64,000 bases of DNA from Escherichia coli (GTDB taxonomy: Bacteria; Pseudomonadota; Gammaproteobacteria; Enterobacterales; Enterobacteriaceae). The notes beneath the pieces were generated by a model, which ran no database searches, was not told the origin of the DNA, and worked only from the letters and a program-made list of their open reading frames with translations. Each line of letters starts with the position of its first letter. Position 1 is the first letter of the stretch. The stretch is from the NCBI RefSeq assembly GCF_013122565.1, contig NZ_CP053258.1; one strand, 5' to 3'. Below are positions 2,894-14,314 of this stretch, piece after piece. A program made the position numbers and the translations under genes.

Positions 2894-3122
2894 AATCAGG
2901 ATGAGCTCCTTTTGACCAATCCCAGGAAAATTCTGCGTATTTTACCGGGTAATTGCGCAATGGACAGTTAGGATATGTTCGAAAAAACAGCAAAAAGCAC
3001 GATTTCATCTATCTTTGTGCTGTGAAAGTTAATAGTGCACTTGCACTTGAGGTAATCGGCAAATACTCTTAGTGAGTAAATGTTTGCCGTGGTGGCAAGG
3101 TGTTAGAACAACAGAGAATATA

Positions 3123-4121
3123 ATGATGCAGGATTTGCGTCTGATATTAATCATTGTTGGCGCGATCGCCATAATCGCTTTACTGGTACATGGTTTCTGG
3201 ACCAGCCGTAAAGAACGATCTTCTATGTTCCGCGATCGGCCATTAAAACGAATGAAGTCAAAACGTGACGACGATTCTTATGACGAGGATGTCGAAGATG
3301 ATGAGGGCGTTGGTGAGGTTCGAGTTCACCGCGTGAATCATGCCCCGGCTAACGCCCAGGAGCATGAGGCTGCTCGTCCGTCGCCGCAACACCAGTACCA
3401 ACCGCCTTATGCGTCTGCCCAGCCCCGTCAACCGGTCCAGCAGCCGCCTGAAGCGCAGGTACCGCCGCAACATGCTCCGCGTCCAGCGCAGCCGGTGCAG
3501 CAACCCGTGCAGCAGCCTGCCTATCAGCCGCAGCCTGAACAGCCGTTGCAGCAGCCAGTTTCGCCACAGGTCGCATCAGCGCCGCAGCCAGTGCATTCAG
3601 CACCGCAATCGGCACAACAGGCTTTCCAGCCTGCAGAACCCGTAGCGGCACCACAGCCTGAGCCTGTAGTGGAACCGGCTCCAGTTATGGATAAACCGAA
3701 GCGCAAAGAAGCGGTGATTATCATGAACGTCGCGGCGCATCACGGTAGCGAGCTAAACGGTGAACTGCTTCTTAACAGCATTCAACAAGCGGGCTTCATT
3801 TTTGGCGATATGAATATTTACCATCGTCATCTTAGCCCGGATGGCAGCGGCCCGGCGTTATTTAGCCTGGCGAATATGGTGAAACCGGGAACCTTTGATC
3901 CTGAAATGAAGGATTTCACTACTCCGGGTGTCACTATCTTTATGCAGGTACCGTCTTACGGTGACGAGCTGCAGAACTTCAAGCTGATGCTGCAATCTGC
4001 GCAGCATATTGCCGATGAAGTGGGCGGTGTAGTGCTTGACGATCAGCGCCGTATGATGACTCCGCAGAAATTGCGCGAGTACCAGGACATCATCCGCGAA
4101 GTCAAAGACGCCAACGCCTGA
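3123..4121 (+). CDS. zipA: Cell division protein ZipA (FtsZ membrane anchor)
   Basis: ORF 3072-4121; start placed at internal [21 protein letters not shown] (N-terminal TM), P/Q-rich linker, C-terminal FtsZ-binding domain. Confidence 0.93.
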
Positions 4122-4182: not shown

Positions 4183-6207
<2,025 letters not shown>

Positions 6208-6208
6208 G

Positions 6209-6427
6209 ATGGAAAAAGAGCAGCTGATTGAAATAGCCAATACGATAATGCCGTTTGGCAAATACAAAGGGCGTCGCTTAATCGACCTGCCGGAGGAGTA
6301 TCTGCTGTGGTTTGCCCGCAAAGATGAGTTCCCGGCAGGGAAGCTCGGTGAGCTAATGCAAATCACGCTGCTGATTAAAACCGAGGGGCTGACGCAACTG
6401 GTCCAGCCCCTGAAGCGTCCGCTTTAA
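6209..6427 (+). CDS. ypeB: DUF3820-family small protein YpeB
   Basis: ORF 6110-6427 overlaps the ligA 3' end; start placed at MEKEQLIEIANTIMPFGKYKGRRL one base after the ligA stop. Confidence 0.8.
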   Translation: MEKEQLIEIANTIMPFGKYKGRRLIDLPEEYLLWFARKDEFPAGKLGELMQITLLIKTEGLTQLVQPLKRPL

Positions 6428-7422
6428 GCTTTATCGGCGCTGCTTTCCTGCTGCGCCTGTAACTGTTCGGTCTGGCGTTTGTATCGACGCGCCAGCACCG
6501 CACAGACCATCAATTGGATCTGATGGAAAATCATCAGGGGCAGCACCATCATACCGATCACCGATGTGGGGAACAGAATGTTTGCCATCGGGATGCCATT
6601 TGCCAGACTCTTTTTCGAACCACAAAAGACGATAGTAATTTCATCTGCTTTATTGAAGCCCAGTCGGCGTGCCATAAAGACGTTAACTACAATCACGATA
6701 GCCAGAAGAACGCAGCTGGCCACCACGATAAACAGCAATGATCCCCAGCCAACTTTATGCCAGATACCATTAACGACGGCTTCGCTGAACGCTGTATAAA
6801 CCACCAACAGAATGGACGTCTGGTCAGTTTTCGCAATCCATTTTTTATTGCGCGACACCCAGTCACCAATCCACGGCCGGGAAAGATGCCCTAACACAAA
6901 CGGCAGCAACAGTTGCAGCATAATTTTACCGACCTGCTCAAGGCTGCCCCCTGCACCGTGAACATTCATCACCAGGCCAACCAACAATGGTGAAAGGAAA
7001 ATCCCCAGCAGGCTGGATGCCGACGCAGAACAAACCGCCGCCGCGACGTTACCGCCCGCCATTGACGTGAAGGCGATTGCAGACTGCACGGTCGCGGGGA
7101 GAATGCACAAGTAGAGAAAACCGGAGTAGAGCATCGGGTCGACATTTACCGGTTTCCACCAGGCAAACAGCACGCCCAGAATCGGAAACAGCACGAAGGT
7201 GCTGCACATTACCCACAAATGCAGTCGCCAGTGACCACCGCCAGCAATAATCGCCTCACGCGACAACTTCGCGCCGTGCATAAAGAACAGCAGGGCAATC
7301 GCTGCGGTGGTCAGATTTTCAAAGAAGGGGACGAAATCGCCTCTGGCCGGAAAGAAAGAGGCCAACAACACCACCGTGATCAGGGTTAAGGTGAAAGGAT
7401 CGAGGATACGAAAAAGTTTCAT
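6424..7422 (-). CDS. yfeH: Putative bile acid:Na+ symporter-family (BASS) transporter YfeH
   Basis: 332-aa polytopic membrane ORF MKLFRILDPFTLTLITVVLLASFFPARGDF... Confidence 0.88.
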   Translation of the reverse strand: MKLFRILDPFTLTLITVVLLASFFPARGDFVPFFENLTTAAIALLFFMHGAKLSREAIIAGGGHWRLHLWVMCSTFVLFPILGVLFAWWKPVNVDPMLYSGFLYLCILPATVQSAIAFTSMAGGNVAAAVCSASASSLLGIFLSPLLVGLVMNVHGAGGSLEQVGKIMLQLLLPFVLGHLSRPWIGDWVSRNKKWIAKTDQTSILLVVYTAFSEAVVNGIWHKVGWGSLLFIVVASCVLLAIVIVVNVFMARRLGFNKADEITIVFCGSKKSLANGIPMANILFPTSVIGMMVLPLMIFHQIQLMVCAVLARRYKRQTEQLQAQQESSADKA

Positions 7423-7465
7423 AAAGACTCCAGATGATCGATGCTTTCATTGTGCGTTGTTCTGA

Positions 7466-7494
7466 TTGATAAATAAAACTGAATTGCTTATCAA
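7466..7494. promoter_or_regulatory. Inverted repeat TTGATAA-N15-TTATCAA upstream of yfeH; candidate operator
   Basis: Palindromic arms read directly in sequence about 45-70 bp upstream of the yfeH start; function inferred. Confidence 0.25.
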
Positions 7495-8050
7495 TTTGTG
7501 CGCGAGGAGTGTGAGTGAGTTGCTCGCTCGCTTCGACTGGTTGGCAGAGCGGGGGAGGATATCCCGGATGAGACAAATAAGACGTTCGACAAGAGAATCA
7601 GGTGACTACAGAAAAAATCACAGGATGTTATTACTGCTGATGTTCATGTCGGTTTTCGCGTTATCAGAACTGGTTTTAGAACTGCTATTTAATCGATAAT
7701 GCCATTCTGCAGGAAAGCTTTACCTACTTTATTATTTGCGGTGTGGTAAAACCTGGTCACCAGAGGCAGGTTTAATACCAGACGCTGTCTTTTATCAGAT
7801 ATCCCATGTAAATAATAAATGCAATGAATATTAATTCATTATGTATTTATTTTGTGATTGTTTGGTGTTACTAGTTTGTTGGACAAATAACAACTCTAAC
7901 TAATACATAAACCTTGCATAGTGACAGAGTATCGATCTGAATGTTTTCAACATTGATATCAAATTGCAATTGATATCCGTGGTAAAAAGTATTGGTAAAT
8001 TTGATGAATTTCCGGATATTTAAAGGGGCGGCTCAAAGACGAAGGGGAAG

Positions 8051-9307
8051 ATGGTGAATCTAAAACTACAGTTAAAAGTTCTTTCATTTCTGCAATTCTT
8101 TTTGTGGGGAAGTTGGCTCAACACATTCGGTTCTTATATGTTTATCACGCTGCGTTTTAAGGGCGAAGATATAGGCGCAGTCTACAGTACACTGGGTATC
8201 GCAGCATTAATAACATCAACGTTATTTGGTATCGTGGCCGATAAATGGATTAGTGCTAAATGGATATATGCCGCTTGTCATTTATTTGGCGCGATAACAT
8301 TATTTATCGCAGCATCGGTTACCACGCCTTCGGCAATGTTCATTGTCATTTTACTTAACTCTCTTGTGTATATGCCAACACTCGGTTTGAGTAATACAAT
8401 TTCCTATTACCGCCTACAAACAGCGGGGATGGATATTGTGACAGAATTTCCGCCAATCCGTATCTGGGGCACGATTGGATTTATTGTCGCAATGTGGGCG
8501 GTTAGCCTGGCTGGTTTTGAATTAAGTCATATGCAATTATATATCGGTGCGGCGGCTTCATTAGGCTTGAGCCTGTTCACGTTGACTTTACCAACTGTAC
8601 CAGTGGCGAAATCTAACCAGGCGCAAGGAATGATAGATGTTCTCGGATTGCGTGCATTTACACTGTTTAAAAACAGCAAAATGGCGATTTTCTTTATCTT
8701 TGCCATGCTGCTCGGGGCAGAGTTACAAATTACCGGGATGTTTGGTAATACATTTCTCCACAGCTTTGAGAGCGTTCCAGAGTTTACCAATAGTTTTGTT
8801 GTTACCCATGCTTCTATTCTGTTATCAATTTCTCAGATATCCGAAGTCTGTTTCATTCTTGCCATTCCTTTTTTCCTGAAAAAATACGGTATCAAAAATG
8901 TCATGCTGATGAGCATGGTGGCCTGGATGCTGCGTTTTGGTTTATTCGCTTATGGCGATCCTTCATTCGGTGGTACCATTCTGTTAATTCTTTCGATGAT
9001 TGTTTATGGCTGTGCTTTTGACTTCTTCAATATATCTGGCTCGGTATTTGTTGAACAAGAAGTTGATCCATCGATTCGTAACAGCGCTCAGGGCGTTTTC
9101 CTGATGATGGCCAATGGTTTTGGTTGTATTCTGGGCGGTTTTATCAGTGGTAAAGTCGTCGATTATTTAACAACGGATGGCAATCCACAGTGGTCAACCA
9201 TTTGGCTGGTATTTGCCGGATATTCACTGGTTCTGGCTCTCGCATTTATGGTGTTGTTTAAATATAAACACAACGGTAACCCGACAACGTCCGGTCATTT
9301 CGCCTGA
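8051..9307 (+). CDS. Nucleoside:H+ symporter (NHS family), NupG/XapB paralogue
   Basis: 418-aa 12-TM ORF MVNLKLQLKVLSFLQFFLWGSWL...; by recollection closer to NupG than to the XapB encoded 2 kb downstream; AT-rich; GTG at 8054 is an alternative start. Confidence 0.85.
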   Translation: MVNLKLQLKVLSFLQFFLWGSWLNTFGSYMFITLRFKGEDIGAVYSTLGIAALITSTLFGIVADKWISAKWIYAACHLFGAITLFIAASVTTPSAMFIVILLNSLVYMPTLGLSNTISYYRLQTAGMDIVTEFPPIRIWGTIGFIVAMWAVSLAGFELSHMQLYIGAAASLGLSLFTLTLPTVPVAKSNQAQGMIDVLGLRAFTLFKNSKMAIFFIFAMLLGAELQITGMFGNTFLHSFESVPEFTNSFVVTHASILLSISQISEVCFILAIPFFLKKYGIKNVMLMSMVAWMLRFGLFAYGDPSFGGTILLILSMIVYGCAFDFFNISGSVFVEQEVDPSIRNSAQGVFLMMANGFGCILGGFISGKVVDYLTTDGNPQWSTIWLVFAGYSLVLALAFMVLFKYKHNGNPTTSGHFA

Positions 9308-9361
9308 TACGGAGTTTATCAAAATTAATAATGTTTTATAGGATTCGCAAAAGAGGAAGTT

Positions 9362-10273
9362 ATGGCAAATCAATTGTATAACCAGTGTCGGGTTTATTGT
9401 GCACCCTGGCGATTAGATGCTTTAAATTTAAATGATATCATTGATCAATGGATTGACGAGGGGCTGTTGCCGCCCCTGATCCATACTTTTCTTCCATATC
9501 GCGATGATGCCGGTGCCTCCAGTGAAGAAGAGATTTTTGTTAACGATGTCGCGAATATGGATAACAGTGTTGGGGTTATCGGTTATTTCGATGGTGGAAC
9601 CTATGATTCCGGTTATGCATGGGCTTTAGGGATGCCTGTTCACCTGGTAACGACAGACTTTCTTATATGGGCAGCGGGGAATTCTTCAGAGTTTTATCCT
9701 ATAAGTAAGCTGATGAATTATGTGGCAAAAGTGGTTTCTGTGTCAGATTCCGATACCAGTATCAGCAATTATCGTGAACAAACCGACGATATCATCAAGC
9801 GTGCGTTGCAAATTTTTCAACAAAATTTAATCGCCGACTTCGGCACGACGATTAATCCAGCAGTACCGGTTACTCCATTGCCGATTGAGTATGACTACTA
9901 TATTGATCCTAACTTTATGTATACCGAACCCTCTCGGGACTTACTGGTGAAGATCAAAGATGCGATCATTAGTGCAGGTAAGACTTTCATCGTTGGCGAC
10001 AACATGAATGATATTGCGACTGATATTGATAACTTAAGAAAATCCAGACAGGCCATCTTTTATTCCGATACCTTTGAGCCGAATGTTGACACCGGCATTA
10101 TGAATGGTATTGCCTATGCATTAGGACAGCAATCGATTATTTATTGTAGCAAGCAACAAAAATATCAATCTGCGCTCGCGACAGATTATTTAAATTTAAT
10201 GATTACCTGGTCGTCAACGGTGGCGCATTCATTTGCGGAACTTGAAACATTGATTGGTAACACAGAAAAATAA
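9362..10273 (+). CDS. Hypothetical protein with two repeats of a nucleoside 2-deoxyribosyltransferase-like (SLOG-like) motif
   Basis: 303-aa ORF; motif VIGYFDGGTYDSGYAWALGMPVHLV in the first half and AIFYSDTFEPNVDTGIMNGIAYALGQQSIIY in the second; N-terminal VYCAPW resembles the NDT IYFGAGWF motif; family assignment by eye only. Confidence 0.4.
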   Translation: MANQLYNQCRVYCAPWRLDALNLNDIIDQWIDEGLLPPLIHTFLPYRDDAGASSEEEIFVNDVANMDNSVGVIGYFDGGTYDSGYAWALGMPVHLVTTDFLIWAAGNSSEFYPISKLMNYVAKVVSVSDSDTSISNYREQTDDIIKRALQIFQQNLIADFGTTINPAVPVTPLPIEYDYYIDPNFMYTEPSRDLLVKIKDAIISAGKTFIVGDNMNDIATDIDNLRKSRQAIFYSDTFEPNVDTGIMNGIAYALGQQSIIYCSKQQKYQSALATDYLNLMITWSSTVAHSFAELETLIGNTEK

Positions 10274-10285
10274 TAGTTAATTTTA

Positions 10286-10328
10286 CTGATTATCAGGTGA
10301 GTGATTGCCTGATAATCAGCTTTTTGTT
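10286..10328 (+). terminator. Rho-independent terminator after the 303-aa ORF
   Basis: Perfect 12-bp inverted repeat ctgattatcagg / cctgataatcag with 10-nt loop, followed by cttttt. Confidence 0.65.
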
Positions 10329-10501
10329 AGCCACCAAAGAAAAATATACTGCCGTTATATTTCTCTGCCGGGGAACGATATGATCGATTTCAAAATTATA
10401 TTGAATATCTCTGGAAAATGTATTGGTCACTCGCGACTTTTTCTCGCTATAAAAAAATGTGACTCAGATCTAACGCATAATGCTTATTACAAGGACTTGC
10501 C

Positions 10502-11335
10502 ATGACCCAATCTCATTTTTCACAAAACCCGTGGTATTGCGCAGATATCATTCGTCGTCATAAACCAGACTTTACCCCACGCGTTGCGTTTATTTTGGGT
10601 TCGGGACTGGGAGCGCTGGCTGAACAAATAGAAGACGCAGTTGCCATTTCTTATAGCGATTTGCCGGGGTTTCCGGTGAGCACCGTACACGGCCATGCAG
10701 GAGAGTTGGTCCTCGGCGTGCTTTCTGGTGTGCCTGTAGCCTGCATGAAAGGTCGCGGTCATTTTTATGAGGGCCGGGGAATGACTGTCATGACTGATGC
10801 TATTCGCACGTTCAAGTTGCTGGGCTGTGAATTGTTGTTCTGCACTAACGCTGCAGGTTCGCTTCGCCCGGAAGTAGGGGCGGGTAGTCTGGTTGCGCTG
10901 AAAGATCACATTAATACGATGCCAGGCACACCGATGACAGGCCTTAATGATGAGCGTTTTGGTGAACGTTTTTTCTCATTAGCGAATGCTTACGATGCTG
11001 ATTACCGCGCCGTTTTACAAACCGTCGCGCATGAAGAAGGTTTTCCGCTGACAGAAGGGGTTTTTGTTTCTTATCCGGGGCCGAACTTCGAAACGGCGGC
11101 AGAAATTCGCATGATGCAGCTGTTTGGTGGCGACGTAGTAGGTATGTCTGTAGTGCCTGAAGTGATTAGCGCACGTCATTGCGAAATGAAAGTCGTTGCC
11201 GTGTCAGCAATAACCAACATGGCGGAAGGCTTAAGCGATGTGAAATTGTCGCATGCCCAAACCCTGGCTGCAGCAGAGTTATCACGACAAAACTTTATTA
11301 ATTTGATTTGCGGATTCTTACGCAAAATCGCCTGA
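10502..11335 (+). CDS. xapA: Xanthosine phosphorylase (purine nucleoside phosphorylase II)
   Basis: 277-aa ORF MTQSHFSQNPWYCADIIRRHKPDFTPRVAFILGSGLG..., PNP/MTAP fold. Confidence 0.93.
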   Translation: MTQSHFSQNPWYCADIIRRHKPDFTPRVAFILGSGLGALAEQIEDAVAISYSDLPGFPVSTVHGHAGELVLGVLSGVPVACMKGRGHFYEGRGMTVMTDAIRTFKLLGCELLFCTNAAGSLRPEVGAGSLVALKDHINTMPGTPMTGLNDERFGERFFSLANAYDADYRAVLQTVAHEEGFPLTEGVFVSYPGPNFETAAEIRMMQLFGGDVVGMSVVPEVISARHCEMKVVAVSAITNMAEGLSDVKLSHAQTLAAAELSRQNFINLICGFLRKIA

Positions 11336-11392
11336 AAACAATAAAAATGGCCTCGCGGATGGGGCCATCTCTCTGCGATAAGGAAACGAAAA

Positions 11393-12640
11393 ATGAATAT
11401 CGCAACGCGTTTAAAGGTAATGTCTTTCTTACAATATTTTATCTGGGGGAGTTGGTTAGTTACCCTCGGATCTTACATGATAAACACCTTACATTTTACC
11501 GGGGCTGATGTCGGTATGGCATACAGTTCTAAAGGCATTGCGGCCATTATTATGCCAGCCATTATGGGCATTATTGCCGATAAATGGTTACGGGCTGAAC
11601 GTACCTATATGCTGTGTCACTTAATTTGTGCCGGGGTGCTTTTTTATGCCGCCTCCGTAACTGAACCGAATATGATGTTCTGGGTGATGTTGCTTAACGC
11701 GATGGCTTTCATGCCCACGATTGCGTTATCCAACAGTGTTTCCTATTCGTGCCTGGCGCAGGCCGGATTAGACCCAGTCACCAGTTTTCCGCCAATCCGT
11801 GTTTATGGCACCGTGGGATTTATTGTCGCAATGTGGCTGGTGAGTTTATTGCATCTGGAGTTAAGTAGTGTGCAGTTGTATATCGCTTCTGGAGCATCTT
11901 TAGTGTTAGCGATCTATGCATTAACATTACCGAAAATTCCAGTGGCGGAACATAAAGCCAGTACGACGCTTTCCAGTAAATTAGGCCTGGATGCGTTTGT
12001 GTTATTTAAAAATCCGCGTATGGCGATTTTCTTTTTATTTGCTATGTTATTAGGTGCGGTACTGCAAATTACTAACGTTTTTGGTAATCCTTTCCTGCAT
12101 GACTTTGCCCGCAATCTTGAGTTTGCTGATAGCTTCGTGGTGAAATATCCATCCATTTTGCTCTCGGTTTCACAAATGGCGGAAGTCGGCTTCATTCTTA
12201 CCATTCCATTCTTCCTGAAGCGTTTTGGCATCAAAACCGTCATGTTGATGAGTATGGTAGCGTGGACGTTACGCTTTGGCTTCTTTGCCTTTGGCGACCC
12301 ATCGGCAGGTGGCTTTGTATTATTGTTGTTGTCGATGATTGTGTATGGCTGCGCGTTCGACTTTTTCAATATCTCCGGTTCAGTGTTTGTCGAGCAAGAA
12401 GTGGACTCCAGGATCCGCGCCAGCGCTCAGGGTTTATTTATGACTATGGTCAATGGCGTTGGGGCGTGGATTGGTTCTCTTCTGAGTGGCATGGCAGTTG
12501 ACTATTTCACGGTTGATGGCGTGAAAGACTGGCAAACCATCTGGCTAGTATTTGCTGCGTATGCACTGGCCTTAGCGGTGATTTTTGCCCTGTTCTTCCG
12601 TTATAAGCATGAACCTGATAAATGGCGCAGAAATCATTGA
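11393..12640 (+). CDS. xapB: Xanthosine permease (NHS family)
   Basis: 415-aa ORF MNIATRLKVMSFLQYFIWGSWLVTLGSYMINTLHFTG... directly downstream of xapA. Confidence 0.92.
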   Translation: MNIATRLKVMSFLQYFIWGSWLVTLGSYMINTLHFTGADVGMAYSSKGIAAIIMPAIMGIIADKWLRAERTYMLCHLICAGVLFYAASVTEPNMMFWVMLLNAMAFMPTIALSNSVSYSCLAQAGLDPVTSFPPIRVYGTVGFIVAMWLVSLLHLELSSVQLYIASGASLVLAIYALTLPKIPVAEHKASTTLSSKLGLDAFVLFKNPRMAIFFLFAMLLGAVLQITNVFGNPFLHDFARNLEFADSFVVKYPSILLSVSQMAEVGFILTIPFFLKRFGIKTVMLMSMVAWTLRFGFFAFGDPSAGGFVLLLLSMIVYGCAFDFFNISGSVFVEQEVDSRIRASAQGLFMTMVNGVGAWIGSLLSGMAVDYFTVDGVKDWQTIWLVFAAYALALAVIFALFFRYKHEPDKWRRNH

Positions 12641-12716
12641 CTCACTGATGTAAACAGGGTTTTCCTTGATTGCAATGTGCTAAGTTTGCAGCCTTACCCA
12701 TACCGCGTGGAGCGCA

Positions 12717-13607
12717 ATGATTATGGAAGGTACGCATCGTATTGATCTCAAGTTATTGCGCTATTTTCTTGCGGTCGCAGAAGAACTTCACTTTGGGCGG
12801 GCCGCTGCGCGGCTGAATATGTCGCAACCGCCATTAAGTATTCATATTAAAGATCTGGAGCAACAGTTGGGCACGTTGCTGTTCGTTCGTCATTCGCGCA
12901 GTGTGGCGCTCACTCATGCGGGGAAAATTTTACTGGAAGAGTCACGTCGTCTGCTGGCTAATGCCAGTCAGGCGTTGGCACGAGTAGAACAGATCGGTCG
13001 TGGTGAGGCAGGGCGCATTGAGCTGGGCGTGGTGGGAACCGCAATGTGGGGGCGAATGCGTCCGGTAATGCGGCGGTTTTTGAAAGAGTGCCCTAATGTT
13101 CATGTCTCATTTCGTGAAAAATCACCAGGGATGCAAATGGCATTGCTCGAGCGGCGGGAGCTGGACGCGGGTATCTGGCGGATGGCAATTGAACCCACGA
13201 CGGGATTTACCAGTCTGCGATTACACGAATCTTCGTTTTTGGTGGCGATACCGGAAGATCATCATCTGGCTTGCGAAAACGCTATCCCGTTAATGGCATT
13301 ACGCAATGAATACTTTGTGACGCTGCCATCGGTCCATTCCGACTGGGCGTTTTTACAGCGTGTCTGTCAGCAGGCAGGGTTTTCACCGATGATCGTTCGG
13401 GAGGCCGTAGAACCGCAAACCGTACTGGCGATGATCAGTATGGGGCTGGGTGTGACATTAATGGCAGATAGCTATGCCCAAATGAGCTGGCCGGGTGTGG
13501 TATTTCGTCCACTCGAGGAACGTATTCCAGCAGATTTGTATATTGTTTATGAACAGCAACAGGCAACACCAGCGCTGGAGAGATTAGTTAATGCTTTGAT
13601 AGCATGA
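12717..13607 (+). CDS. xapR: LysR-type transcriptional activator of xapAB
   Basis: 296-aa ORF with N-terminal LysR HTH (LKLLRYFLAVAEELHFGRAAARLNMSQPPLS); start could be the second Met at 12723. Confidence 0.9.
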   Translation: MIMEGTHRIDLKLLRYFLAVAEELHFGRAAARLNMSQPPLSIHIKDLEQQLGTLLFVRHSRSVALTHAGKILLEESRRLLANASQALARVEQIGRGEAGRIELGVVGTAMWGRMRPVMRRFLKECPNVHVSFREKSPGMQMALLERRELDAGIWRMAIEPTTGFTSLRLHESSFLVAIPEDHHLACENAIPLMALRNEYFVTLPSVHSDWAFLQRVCQQAGFSPMIVREAVEPQTVLAMISMGLGVTLMADSYAQMSWPGVVFRPLEERIPADLYIVYEQQQATPALERLVNALIA

Positions 13608-13626
13608 AAGAAGATATCGCAGATAG

Positions 13627-13656
13627 CAAAAAAGCGCCTTTAGGGCGCTTTTTTGC
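13627..13656. terminator. Bidirectional rho-independent terminator between xapR and lysV
   Basis: aaagcgcc-ttta-gggcgcttt hairpin with A run upstream and T run downstream. Confidence 0.6.
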
Positions 13657-13658
13657 AT

Positions 13659-13734
13659 TGGTGGGTCGTGCAGGATTCGAACCTGCGACCAATTGATTAA
13701 AAGTCAACTGCTCTACCAACTGAGCTAACGACCC
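13659..13734 (-). tRNA. lysV: tRNA-Lys (anticodon UUU)
   Basis: Reverse complement reads GGGTCGTTAGCTCAGTTGGTAGAGCAGTTGACTTTTAATCAATTGGTCGCAGGTTCGAATCCTGCACGACCCACCA. Confidence 0.95.
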
Positions 13735-13738
13735 GAAG

Positions 13739-13814
13739 TGGTGGGTGATGACGGGATCGAACCGCCGACCCCCTCCTTGTAAGGGAGGTGCTCTCCCAGC
13801 TGAGCTAATCACCC
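13739..13814 (-). tRNA. valY: tRNA-Val (anticodon UAC)
   Basis: Reverse complement reads GGGTGATTAGCTCAGCTGGGAGAGCACCTCCCTTACAAGGAGGGGGTCGGCGGTTCGATCCCGTCATCACCCACCA. Confidence 0.95.
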
Positions 13815-13860
13815 ACTTCGGTACTTCACATTTTTACAAGAAATTTAGCTGGCGAGAAAG

Positions 13861-13936
13861 TGGTGGGTGATGACGGGATCGAACCGCCGACCCCCTCCTT
13901 GTAAGGGAGGTGCTCTCCCAGCTGAGCTAATCACCC
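13861..13936 (-). tRNA. valX: tRNA-Val (anticodon UAC)
   Basis: Identical copy of the tRNA-Val sequence. Confidence 0.95.
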
Positions 13937-13980
13937 ACTTCTCAATTTCTTGCTACACGGCGGAGACTACATAAAGTAGT

Positions 13981-14056
13981 TGGTGGGTGATGACGGGATC
14001 GAACCGCCGACCCCCTCCTTGTAAGGGAGGTGCTCTCCCAGCTGAGCTAATCACCC
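13981..14056 (-). tRNA. valU: tRNA-Val (anticodon UAC)
   Basis: Identical copy of the tRNA-Val sequence. Confidence 0.95.
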
Positions 14057-14314
14057 CCGCTGTGTGGAGTCGCATTATAGGGAGAGTTCAAAATGAGTCA
14101 ACGCATTTTCTAAAGAAATTGTTCGTTCGTCGTAAATTTAAGCAAGATGATCGCAAAACAGACCGTGTTGCGCAATTTGTCAACGAAAACAATAATGCGT
14201 AAGGTTGCAACCCGAACTACATTGAGGAATCAGGCGGGAGTGATAGAATATCGCCCACTCAATTTTTCCAGGATTTGCCGGTTGTCGGCATCTTTCTAAA
14301 CGTAAGGCCATTTC

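Follow-up and report, generated by a model that had tools for sequence, protein, structure and literature searches.

Nucleoside deoxyribosyltransferases (NDTs) have their classic role in lactobacillus salvage, and these enzymes are widely used in making nucleoside analogues. Their canonical covalent mechanism requires a glutamate nucleophile and, to our knowledge, all characterised NDTs are symmetric homo-oligomers. Here we describe a locus of Escherichia coli contig NZ_CP053258.1 (assembly GCF_013122565.1), located within a stretch of 64,000 nucleotides (nt) that we call the window, where two co-oriented genes lie between yfeH and the xapABR operon. The first gene is predicted to encode a relative of the nucleoside permease NupG, and the second a protein of 303 amino acids (aa) in which two NDT-like domains appear to be fused in one chain.

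The identities assigned to these genes, the fused architecture with a single active site, the loss of catalytic residues from the window copy and the evolutionary history proposed for the locus are, when taken together, conclusions that we regard as very probable. We also propose a catabolic role for the intact enzyme, wherein deoxyribose would be passed to a recycled purine base for the benefit of a neighbouring phosphorylase. The explanation as a whole is the best we can offer, with a probability of roughly 60%, and its separate parts are graded individually where they are discussed.

Fold and active site of the fused NDT

The two genes and the domains of the second are placed as follows, where position 1 is the first nucleotide of the window.

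8051-9307, forward strand: open reading frame (ORF) of the NupG-like permease, 418 aa (or 417 aa from the GTG at 8054, the start used in PGAP relatives)
9362-10273, forward strand: ORF of the fused NDT, 303 aa
9362..9859, forward strand: fused NDT domain 1, the catalytic half (alignments; PDB profile matches 7o62 and 7m5h)
9860..10273, forward strand: fused NDT domain 2, the degenerate half (Gly at the Glu position, N-L-M motif kept; hhalign)

A preliminary description of this DNA, prepared from the letters and their translated reading frames, had already read the 303-aa protein as a tandem NDT-like protein. This reading is upheld by two weak matches to the Pfam model PF05014 (residues 41-99 and 219-280) and by the homology of the two halves, which hhalign aligns to each other with 96.7% probability (E 3.9e-10). 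A profile of the fused-NDT family retrieves, from among the PDB sequences, DpNDT (7o62, E 2.7e-18) and EfPDT (7m5h, E 7.9e-17). The AlphaFold2 model of an intact, 97%-identical allele, computed from an alignment of 59 sequences, has a predicted local distance difference test score (pLDDT) of 95.6 and a predicted template-modelling score (pTM) of 0.94. Its best Foldseek matches in the PDB (7o62, 1s2l and 8pqt; probability 1.00, target-normalised TM 0.6-0.75) are single-domain NDTs throughout. DpNDT, EfPDT and CtNDT (8pqt) are the enzymes of Desulfotalea psychrophila, Enterococcus faecalis and Chroococcidiopsis thermalis, respectively.

A word-indexed search of 5.8 billion proteins gave 26 close homologues of the 303-aa protein: those of Escherichia, E. 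albertii and Citrobacter share 80-100% identity with it, and those from metagenomes 43-50%. A profile search of 1.84 billion representatives gave 718 matches below 1e-3, of which 112 fall below 1e-10. Most of the best 150 of these 718 matches are 300-390 aa long and align over their full length, and thus the two-domain architecture is a trait of the family. Full-length structural matches in AFDB (TM 0.8-0.96), which carry automatic names only, come from Deinococcus-Thermus, Streptomyces, Thermomicrobiales and candidate phyla radiation (CPR) bacteria. In a search of 100,044 species representatives made with a 15-sequence alignment, the close clade beyond Escherichia and Citrobacter amounted to a handful of species, mostly gut Lachnospiraceae and Enterocloster. 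Across species, the fused NDT is under purifying selection (dN/dS 0.03-0.09). A structure search of the PDB found no solved fused or tandem NDT, and nothing relevant to the characterisation of one was found in the literature, including links to deoC, purine nucleoside phosphorylase, phosphopentomutase, yfeN, yfeR and xapB.

The residues expected at an NDT active site are distributed unequally between the two domains. They are listed here with the numbering of the intact 309-aa protein, and each count gives the number of 59 diverse fused proteins that keep the residue in its column.

Tyr6, domain 1, substrate binding: 56/59
Asp62, domain 1, substrate binding: 59/59
Asp82, domain 1, substrate binding: 59/59
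Glu88, domain 1, nucleophile: 59/59
Gly90, domain 1, catalytic motif: 59/59
Gly255, domain 2, equivalent of the Glu88 position: 59/59
Asn284, domain 2, NLM motif: 58/59
Met286, domain 2, NLM motif: 58/59

The active site of EfPDT and DpNDT consists of Tyr, Asp, Asp and Glu, together with the Asn and the Met (or Tyr) of an NLM motif (PMC12372993), and we read the mark that this source sets on the NLM residues as 'from partner subunit'. Hidden Markov model alignment, used with the same source, equates Tyr6, Asp62 and Asp82 with Tyr16, Asp74 and Asp94 of DpNDT, and the window protein has kept all three. The NLM position of domain 1 itself has degenerated to S-x-L. Given that domain 1 carries the Tyr, Asp, Asp and Glu residues and domain 2 only the NLM motif, the protein is best viewed as a single-chain pseudo-dimer with one complete site per chain, wherein domain 2 would supply in cis the motif that ordinary NDTs obtain from a second subunit. 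A natural single-chain pseudo-dimer with one site, and with halves that are independently mutable, would be a new architecture for the NDT class. If this is true, the asymmetric chain would also be a natural scaffold on which NDT biocatalysts could be engineered site by site.

DNPH1 shares its fold and Glu nucleophile with the NDTs, and DNPH1 chains were weakly matched in the same profile search of the PDB (E ~0.1). The fused protein might therefore be a DNPH1/Rcl-like or LOG-like nucleotide N-glycosidase, which would act on (deoxy)nucleoside 5'-monophosphates and directly yield deoxyribose-5-phosphate for the aldolase DeoC. However, NDTs match ~17 orders of magnitude better, and the trans motif is the N-L-M of the NDT type. 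We consider this alternative improbable, and the gene neighbourhoods described below bear on it as well.

The window copy of the enzyme departs from its family at the catalytic motif. All 14 close relatives (14/14) read DSGCAWEVGYAWALG where the window reads DSGYAWALG, and the six residues that the window protein lacks, GCAWEV, include the Glu nucleophile. The underlying change in the DNA is the following.

9613..9614, forward strand: point at which 18 bp are deleted in frame, with the imperfect direct repeats GGTTGTGCATGGG and GGTTATGCATGGG on either side (from aligning the DNA to that of LHM10-1 and IAI39)

Both Glu88 and Gly90, which are invariant in the family, are among the residues removed. 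An 18-bp deletion between imperfect repeats would be typical of replication slippage. The identical 303-aa allele is present in two NCBI records, and therefore an assembly artefact is probably not the cause. The deletion is recent, the dS to the nearest intact allele being 0.03. Since Glu88 is missing, the enzyme is most probably inactive in the window strain. The AlphaFold model of the window allele has a pLDDT of 75, with domain 1 the weakest part, but this value is confounded by the shallower alignment (15 versus 59 sequences), and for this reason the low score was not counted as a sign of misfolding.

The pair had been put forward as the place in the window most likely to hold an undescribed function. 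This proposal stands in so far as we found no characterised member of the enzyme family, but the window's own copy, without the catalytic Glu, is poor material for pursuing it. This copy is probably dead, and its direct value is that of a natural loss-of-function control. We recommend that studies of activity use the intact alleles of IAI39-type E. coli, E. albertii or Citrobacter. Intact 309-aa proteins are available as WP_000013329.1 (IAI39) and WP_089601685.1 (LHM10-1).

The 418-aa protein had been described as a permease of the NHS family, and this assignment is confirmed by a score of 633 bits against the NCBIfam nucleoside-permease model TIGR00889 (cut-off 446.1) over residues 3-412. Over its full length it shares 74% identity with NupG of K-12 and 61% with XapB, and its identity to the copy in IAI39 is 98%. 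A dN/dS of 0.02-0.05 across species reflects strong purifying selection. The protein is an NHS-family nucleoside:H+ symporter and a paralogue of NupG, and it appears to be intact.

Gene neighbourhoods and the proposed catabolic role

The neighbourhoods of close-clade relatives, defined by at least 41% identity to the fused NDT, provide eight distinct contexts, and a purine nucleoside phosphorylase (PNP) is encoded in six of them. In E. albertii and cryptic Escherichia, xapA is directly downstream of the NDT gene. In Lachnospiraceae, Enterocloster and metagenome contigs, the co-oriented neighbours encode a PNP of the PunA/XapA type, the phosphopentomutase DeoB (558 bits), the deoxyribose-phosphate aldolase DeoC (257 bits), a sugar-type ABC importer and a regulator. 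The PNP of these Firmicute clusters is 41-45% identical to XapA and passes the inosine/guanosine-specific model TIGR01700. The genome of one further relative carries a DeoD-type PNP and DeoC. In Citrobacter, the genes for the NupG-like permease, the NDT and an adenine deaminase (1075 bits) occur together elsewhere in the chromosome. None of the eight close-clade contexts showed a pyrimidine nucleoside phosphorylase.

The pairing with PNP, DeoB, DeoC and importers suggests that the NDTs of this clade have a catabolic role, for which we propose the following route. Deoxynucleosides would enter the cell through YfeN and the NupG-like symporter where these alleles are intact. The NDT would then form a deoxyribosyl-Glu88 intermediate and hand the sugar to a purine base, which could be hypoxanthine, guanine or xanthine. 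The neighbouring PNP (XapA in Escherichia) would cleave the resulting purine deoxynucleoside to deoxyribose-1-phosphate, such that the base is regenerated, and DeoB and DeoC would complete catabolism. In Citrobacter, the adenine deaminase might convert the adenine freed from deoxyadenosine to the acceptor hypoxanthine.

We judge the chance that the intact enzyme swaps bases in the service of a phosphorylase to be somewhat below even. A broader proposal is tentative and less likely, namely that the fused single-site NDTs define an undescribed catabolic route in which the deoxyribose of any imported deoxynucleoside is funnelled onto a recycled purine, such that one PNP (XapA/PunA or DeoD) together with DeoB and DeoC suffices for them all. 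In Escherichia this route would have extended the xanthosine regulon under the control of XapR in the ancestor, and would since have disappeared from most E. coli.

A serious rival, although one we think unlikely, is that the fused protein acts as a nucleoside N-glycoside hydrolase, which would split deoxynucleosides or a modified nucleoside into free base and free deoxyribose, each then salvaged or catabolised separately. When acceptor bases are lacking, NDTs hydrolyse their substrates, and in Citrobacter the adenine deaminase encoded by the next gene would process the freed adenine. The DeoB and phosphorylase of the close clade, however, handle deoxyribose-1-phosphate and not free deoxyribose, the close-clade clusters lack any deoxyribokinase-like gene, and the active-site set of the NDTs has been retained in full, NLM motif included. 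A fused relative of ~30% identity favours hydrolysis in that its gene lies beside those for a PfkB sugar kinase, an HD phosphohydrolase and an NCS1 nucleobase transporter. The same cluster (L022 4259-11462) also encodes a thymidylate-kinase-like protein, an Fe-alcohol dehydrogenase and a dCTP deaminase, and its HD protein resembles the 5'-deoxynucleotidase YfbR.

These neighbourhoods also bear on the DNPH1-like alternative. DeoC is often encoded next to the fused NDT, as would suit an enzyme that yields deoxyribose-5-phosphate. However, importers and a phosphopentomutase would be needless if this product were made directly.

A further alternative, to which we assign a very low probability, is that the pair forms a phage-defence or DNA-modification system that depletes or alters nucleosides during infection. 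Its basis is that remote fused-NDT relatives (~20-23% identity) are found in mobile or defence islands. However, no PADLOC model matches the permease or the fused NDT, a null result upon which the defence reading was dropped for the close clade. Moreover, no mobility genes are present at the Escherichia locus, which occupies a fixed chromosomal position in common with E. albertii, and the close-clade neighbours are catabolic (PNP, DeoB, DeoC and transporters). The operons of the remote relatives (L018 7001-10111 and L024 124-3484) include genes for uracil-DNA glycosylase, a deoxynucleoside kinase, thymidylate-kinase-like or AAA kinases, and a dCMP deaminase or methyltransferase, and the islands around them carry serine recombinase, restriction-modification and SMODS/SLATT (CBASS-like) genes. 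These operons may represent a nucleotide- or DNA-modification module.

Several observations weigh against the proposal that the intact enzyme is an NDT serving a phosphorylase. The single-sequence matches to PF05014 are sub-threshold (E 0.0059 and 0.024), and no NCBIfam model matches the 303-aa protein. Two of the eight close-clade contexts, Citrobacter and one Clostridiales metagenome-assembled genome, have no phosphorylase nearby, and the ~30%-identity relative has the neighbours of a possible hydrolase noted above. Whether the activity is that of a transferase or of a hydrolase is not readable from sequence, and the fused NDTs are predicted enzymes only. E. coli is already equipped with DeoA, DeoD, Add and Cdd, and therefore the NDT pathway may be redundant in this species, which is perhaps why it is being lost. 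Finally, control of the permease-NDT operon by XapR, for which the argument is the promoter similarity described below, has in our judgement an even chance of being correct. With these points in mind, we nevertheless prefer the route via base exchange as the working explanation for the intact enzyme.

Locus, putative promoter and probable history

The permease-NDT pair belongs to a larger segment in which the window differs from K-12. This segment and the features around it are as follows.

3072-4121: zipA (ORF map)
4192-6207: ligA (ORF map, on which ypeB is also present)
6424-7422, reverse strand: yfeH (ORF map), followed by a 628-nt gap
7486..13614, no strand assigned: variant segment versus K-12, ~6.1 kb, with the yfeN remnant, permease, fused NDT and divergent xapABR
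7675..7793, reverse strand: remnant of yfeN (Tsx/OmpK-type outer-membrane channel), 3' end at ~7675-7735 (~60 nt) and 5' end at ~7754-7793 (~40 nt)
7951..8022, forward strand: putative promoter of the permease-NDT operon, with a -35-like TTGGTA at 7992-7997, a 19-nt spacer and a -10-like TATTTA at 8017-8022
10286-10319, forward strand: intrinsic-terminator-like hairpin closing the permease-NDT unit, with 15 pairs in the stem, a loop of 4 nt and a CTTTTTGTTA tail (T run)
10502-11335, forward strand: xapA, xanthosine phosphorylase, divergent allele (TIGR01699 511 bits versus cut-off 371; 89.5% aa identity to K-12 XapA)
11393-12640, forward strand: xapB, xanthosine permease, divergent allele (89.4% aa identity to K-12 XapB)
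12717-13607, forward strand: xapR, LysR-type activator, divergent allele (79.5% aa identity to K-12 XapR)
3' of xapR: tRNA genes and gltX (ORF map)

The GC content is 0.36-0.43 across 7500-10500, as compared with 0.49-0.57 in zipA-ligA-yfeH and ~0.50 in xapA, which agrees with the AT-rich block of two co-oriented genes first described here; the terminator noted before xapA corresponds to the hairpin at 10286-10319. The identities of the pair and of xapABR also sustain the view that they form a five-gene nucleoside cluster with two paralogous permeases. As first described, K-12 carries both yfeR and yfeN between yfeH and xapA. In the window, yfeR is absent and yfeN survives only as two remnants totalling ~100 nt. 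Alignment to the IAI39 locus, where yfeN is intact (255 aa, 86% identical to K-12 YfeN), indicates that ~650 bp have been deleted from the window's yfeN and that its start codon is gone. The stretch from the end of K-12 homology to the yfeN remnant (7486-7675) is ~65-70% identical to IAI39 and has no K-12 match, and a 77-aa ORF at 7466-7699 has no supporting evidence.

The promoter proposed for the permease-NDT operon was recognised by its likeness to that of xapA. Nucleotides 7951-7998 align, over ~48 nt that include the -35 region, with the promoter of xapA in K-12, in the window and in E. albertii. Against the K-12 xapA promoter, the score of the local alignment is 44, as compared with 19.2 +/- 2.6 in dinucleotide shuffles (z = 9.5), and none of 1000 shuffles reached this score. 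They share an upstream block centred on GATATC, the sequence AAAAGTATTGGTAA across the -35 region, and a TATwwA -10 element that a 19-nt spacer sets off. The proximal ~110 nt upstream of the permease are conserved in the window, IAI39 and E. albertii, and the DNA further upstream is variable. A scan with a sigma-70 pattern gave 11 sites versus 13.4 in shuffles, which is no excess, and the promoter call therefore draws on the xapA-promoter similarity. Upstream of the permease, simple scans for CRP-like and LysR T-N11-A sites yielded only weak matches, which were not used.

For the xapA promoter, PMC7205307 describes two XapR sites, one overlapping the -35 element and one further upstream. The region 7951-7998 is thus a candidate XapR-binding region and, because the permease promoter resembles that of xapA, co-induction of the permease-NDT operon by XapR is plausible. 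In Citrobacter, the 587-nt region upstream of the permease (locus L004 5992-6577) contains a near-exact K-12 xapA promoter core, TATTGAATGCG..AAAGTGTATTGGTA-N19-TATAAA, located ~290 nt before the start codon. This arrangement implies that the leader is long and that a XapR-like regulator is encoded at another site.

The preliminary description viewed the pair as a two-gene accessory unit in the place of yfeR and yfeN. A reading as an insertion that replaced these two genes has to be abandoned because the variant segment extends over ~6.1 kb, includes xapABR and looks ancestral. The window is 97.6% identical to K-12 as far as 7485 and 96.9% identical again from 13615 onwards, and YfeH is 99.4% identical to its K-12 counterpart at the aa level. 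Within the segment, K-12 aligns only at xapAB (77.5%) and xapR (72.5%); the nt identities by gene are 76% for xapA, 79% for xapB and 72% for xapR, and dS between the two xapA alleles is saturated.

The permease-NDT pair is rare, being present in 15 of the 5426 E. coli genomes that are complete, which bears out the expectation that it is not conserved in most members of the species. Seven of these 15 resemble the window in lacking yfeN. In the other eight, among them IAI39 and CE10, the YfeN orthologue (86%) is encoded by an intact gene of divergent orientation that carries the annotation OmpK/Tsx. E. albertii has the same arrangement as the window. The species representative of a cryptic Escherichia clade carries yfeR-yfeN-permease-NDT-xapA-xapB-xapR together, wherein yfeR and yfeN are collinear with K-12 and the rest with the window, at background divergence throughout. 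Between E. coli and E. albertii, the dS of the block is 0.56-0.72, and that of ligA is 0.56.

Given the seven-gene locus of the cryptic clade and the ligA-like dS, the simplest reading is that the block is ancestral for the genus. By the same reading, most E. coli have swapped permease-NDT-xapABR for a foreign or very old xapABR allele, and yfeR and yfeN were deleted separately in the lineage of the window. The full ancestral interval from yfeH to lysV probably comprised yfeR, yfeN, the nupG-like permease gene, the fused NDT gene, xapA, xapB and xapR. The xapABR genes of the window are at background divergence from those of E. albertii and the cryptic-clade genome, and thus it is the xap operon of K-12 that is the odd allele in the genus. 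A recent horizontal insertion was considered as the cause of the low GC content and rejected as the main explanation, since the block has diverged from E. albertii to the same degree as housekeeping genes have. The block may have been acquired earlier, before E. coli and E. albertii split. The closest relatives outside the enterobacteria are gut Lachnospiraceae, a hint that genes passed long ago between Firmicutes of the gut and enterobacteria, and the low GC content of the block would be consistent with this.

In the window strain, the permease-NDT unit is most likely decaying, given both the catalytic deletion and the loss of yfeN. Other losses have occurred elsewhere. In E. coli VE-T9 (NZ_AP027963.1; locus L021 7124-8860), an IS1A element replaces the permease gene, the NDT gene, xapA and the 5' half of xapB, such that a truncated xapB pseudogene and xapR are left, and this deletion is independent of that in the window. 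Truncated NDT alleles also occur in E. albertii. The yfeH-xapR interval is a deep structural polymorphism of E. coli, in which the permease-NDT module can be seen at several stages of loss: the yfeN deletion, the catalytic micro-deletion and the IS1 deletion of VE-T9.

Beyond xapR, the tRNA cluster at 13662-14056 consists of one Lys and three Val genes in the window, as in K-12 and LHM10-1, and IAI39 has four Val genes. These four tRNAs were the only Rfam matches (E-value mode) in 7000-14300, where the intergenic regions gave no riboswitch or small RNA.

Comparison with described systems

Among the known NDTs (NDT type II / PDT type I), the closest points of reference are DpNDT (7o62), EfPDT (7m5h), CtNDT (8pqt), the PDT of L. 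helveticus (1s2d) and the NDT of L. leichmannii (1f8x). The fused proteins share with these enzymes the fold, the catalytic Tyr/Asp/Asp/Glu set, the motif D-x-G-x-x-x-E-x-G-Y-A and the NLM motif that completes the partner's site. Whereas the known NDTs have subunits of 140-170 aa that assemble as homodimers, tetramers or hexamers, each dimer having two equivalent sites, the fused family has one chain of 300-390 aa with two diverged copies and one intact site. The window allele differs from the known enzymes further in being without the Glu nucleophile.

The permease has full-length similarity to NupG and XapB, which are members of the major facilitator superfamily's NHS subfamily (TIGR00889), and scores above the curated cut-off of this model. 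It differs from them in being a third paralogue, present in ~0.3% of complete E. coli genomes, and in forming an operon with the fused NDT gene behind a xapA-like promoter. The xapABR genes of the window have the chromosomal position, gene order and promoter architecture of the K-12 regulon, and the XapA protein passes the XAPA equivalog model. However, these alleles are deeply divergent from those of K-12 and are preceded by the extra permease-NDT operon.

Operons of the deoCABD type offer the nearest parallel to the Firmicute clusters, which likewise join a nucleoside phosphorylase, a phosphopentomutase, a deoxyribose-phosphate aldolase and a transporter. They differ from these operons in that no DeoA or Pdp was seen in the Firmicute clusters, where the fused NDT occupies the corresponding logical slot. 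The position of the fused NDT in place of DeoA/Pdp suggests that base exchange is used there instead of a second phosphorylase.

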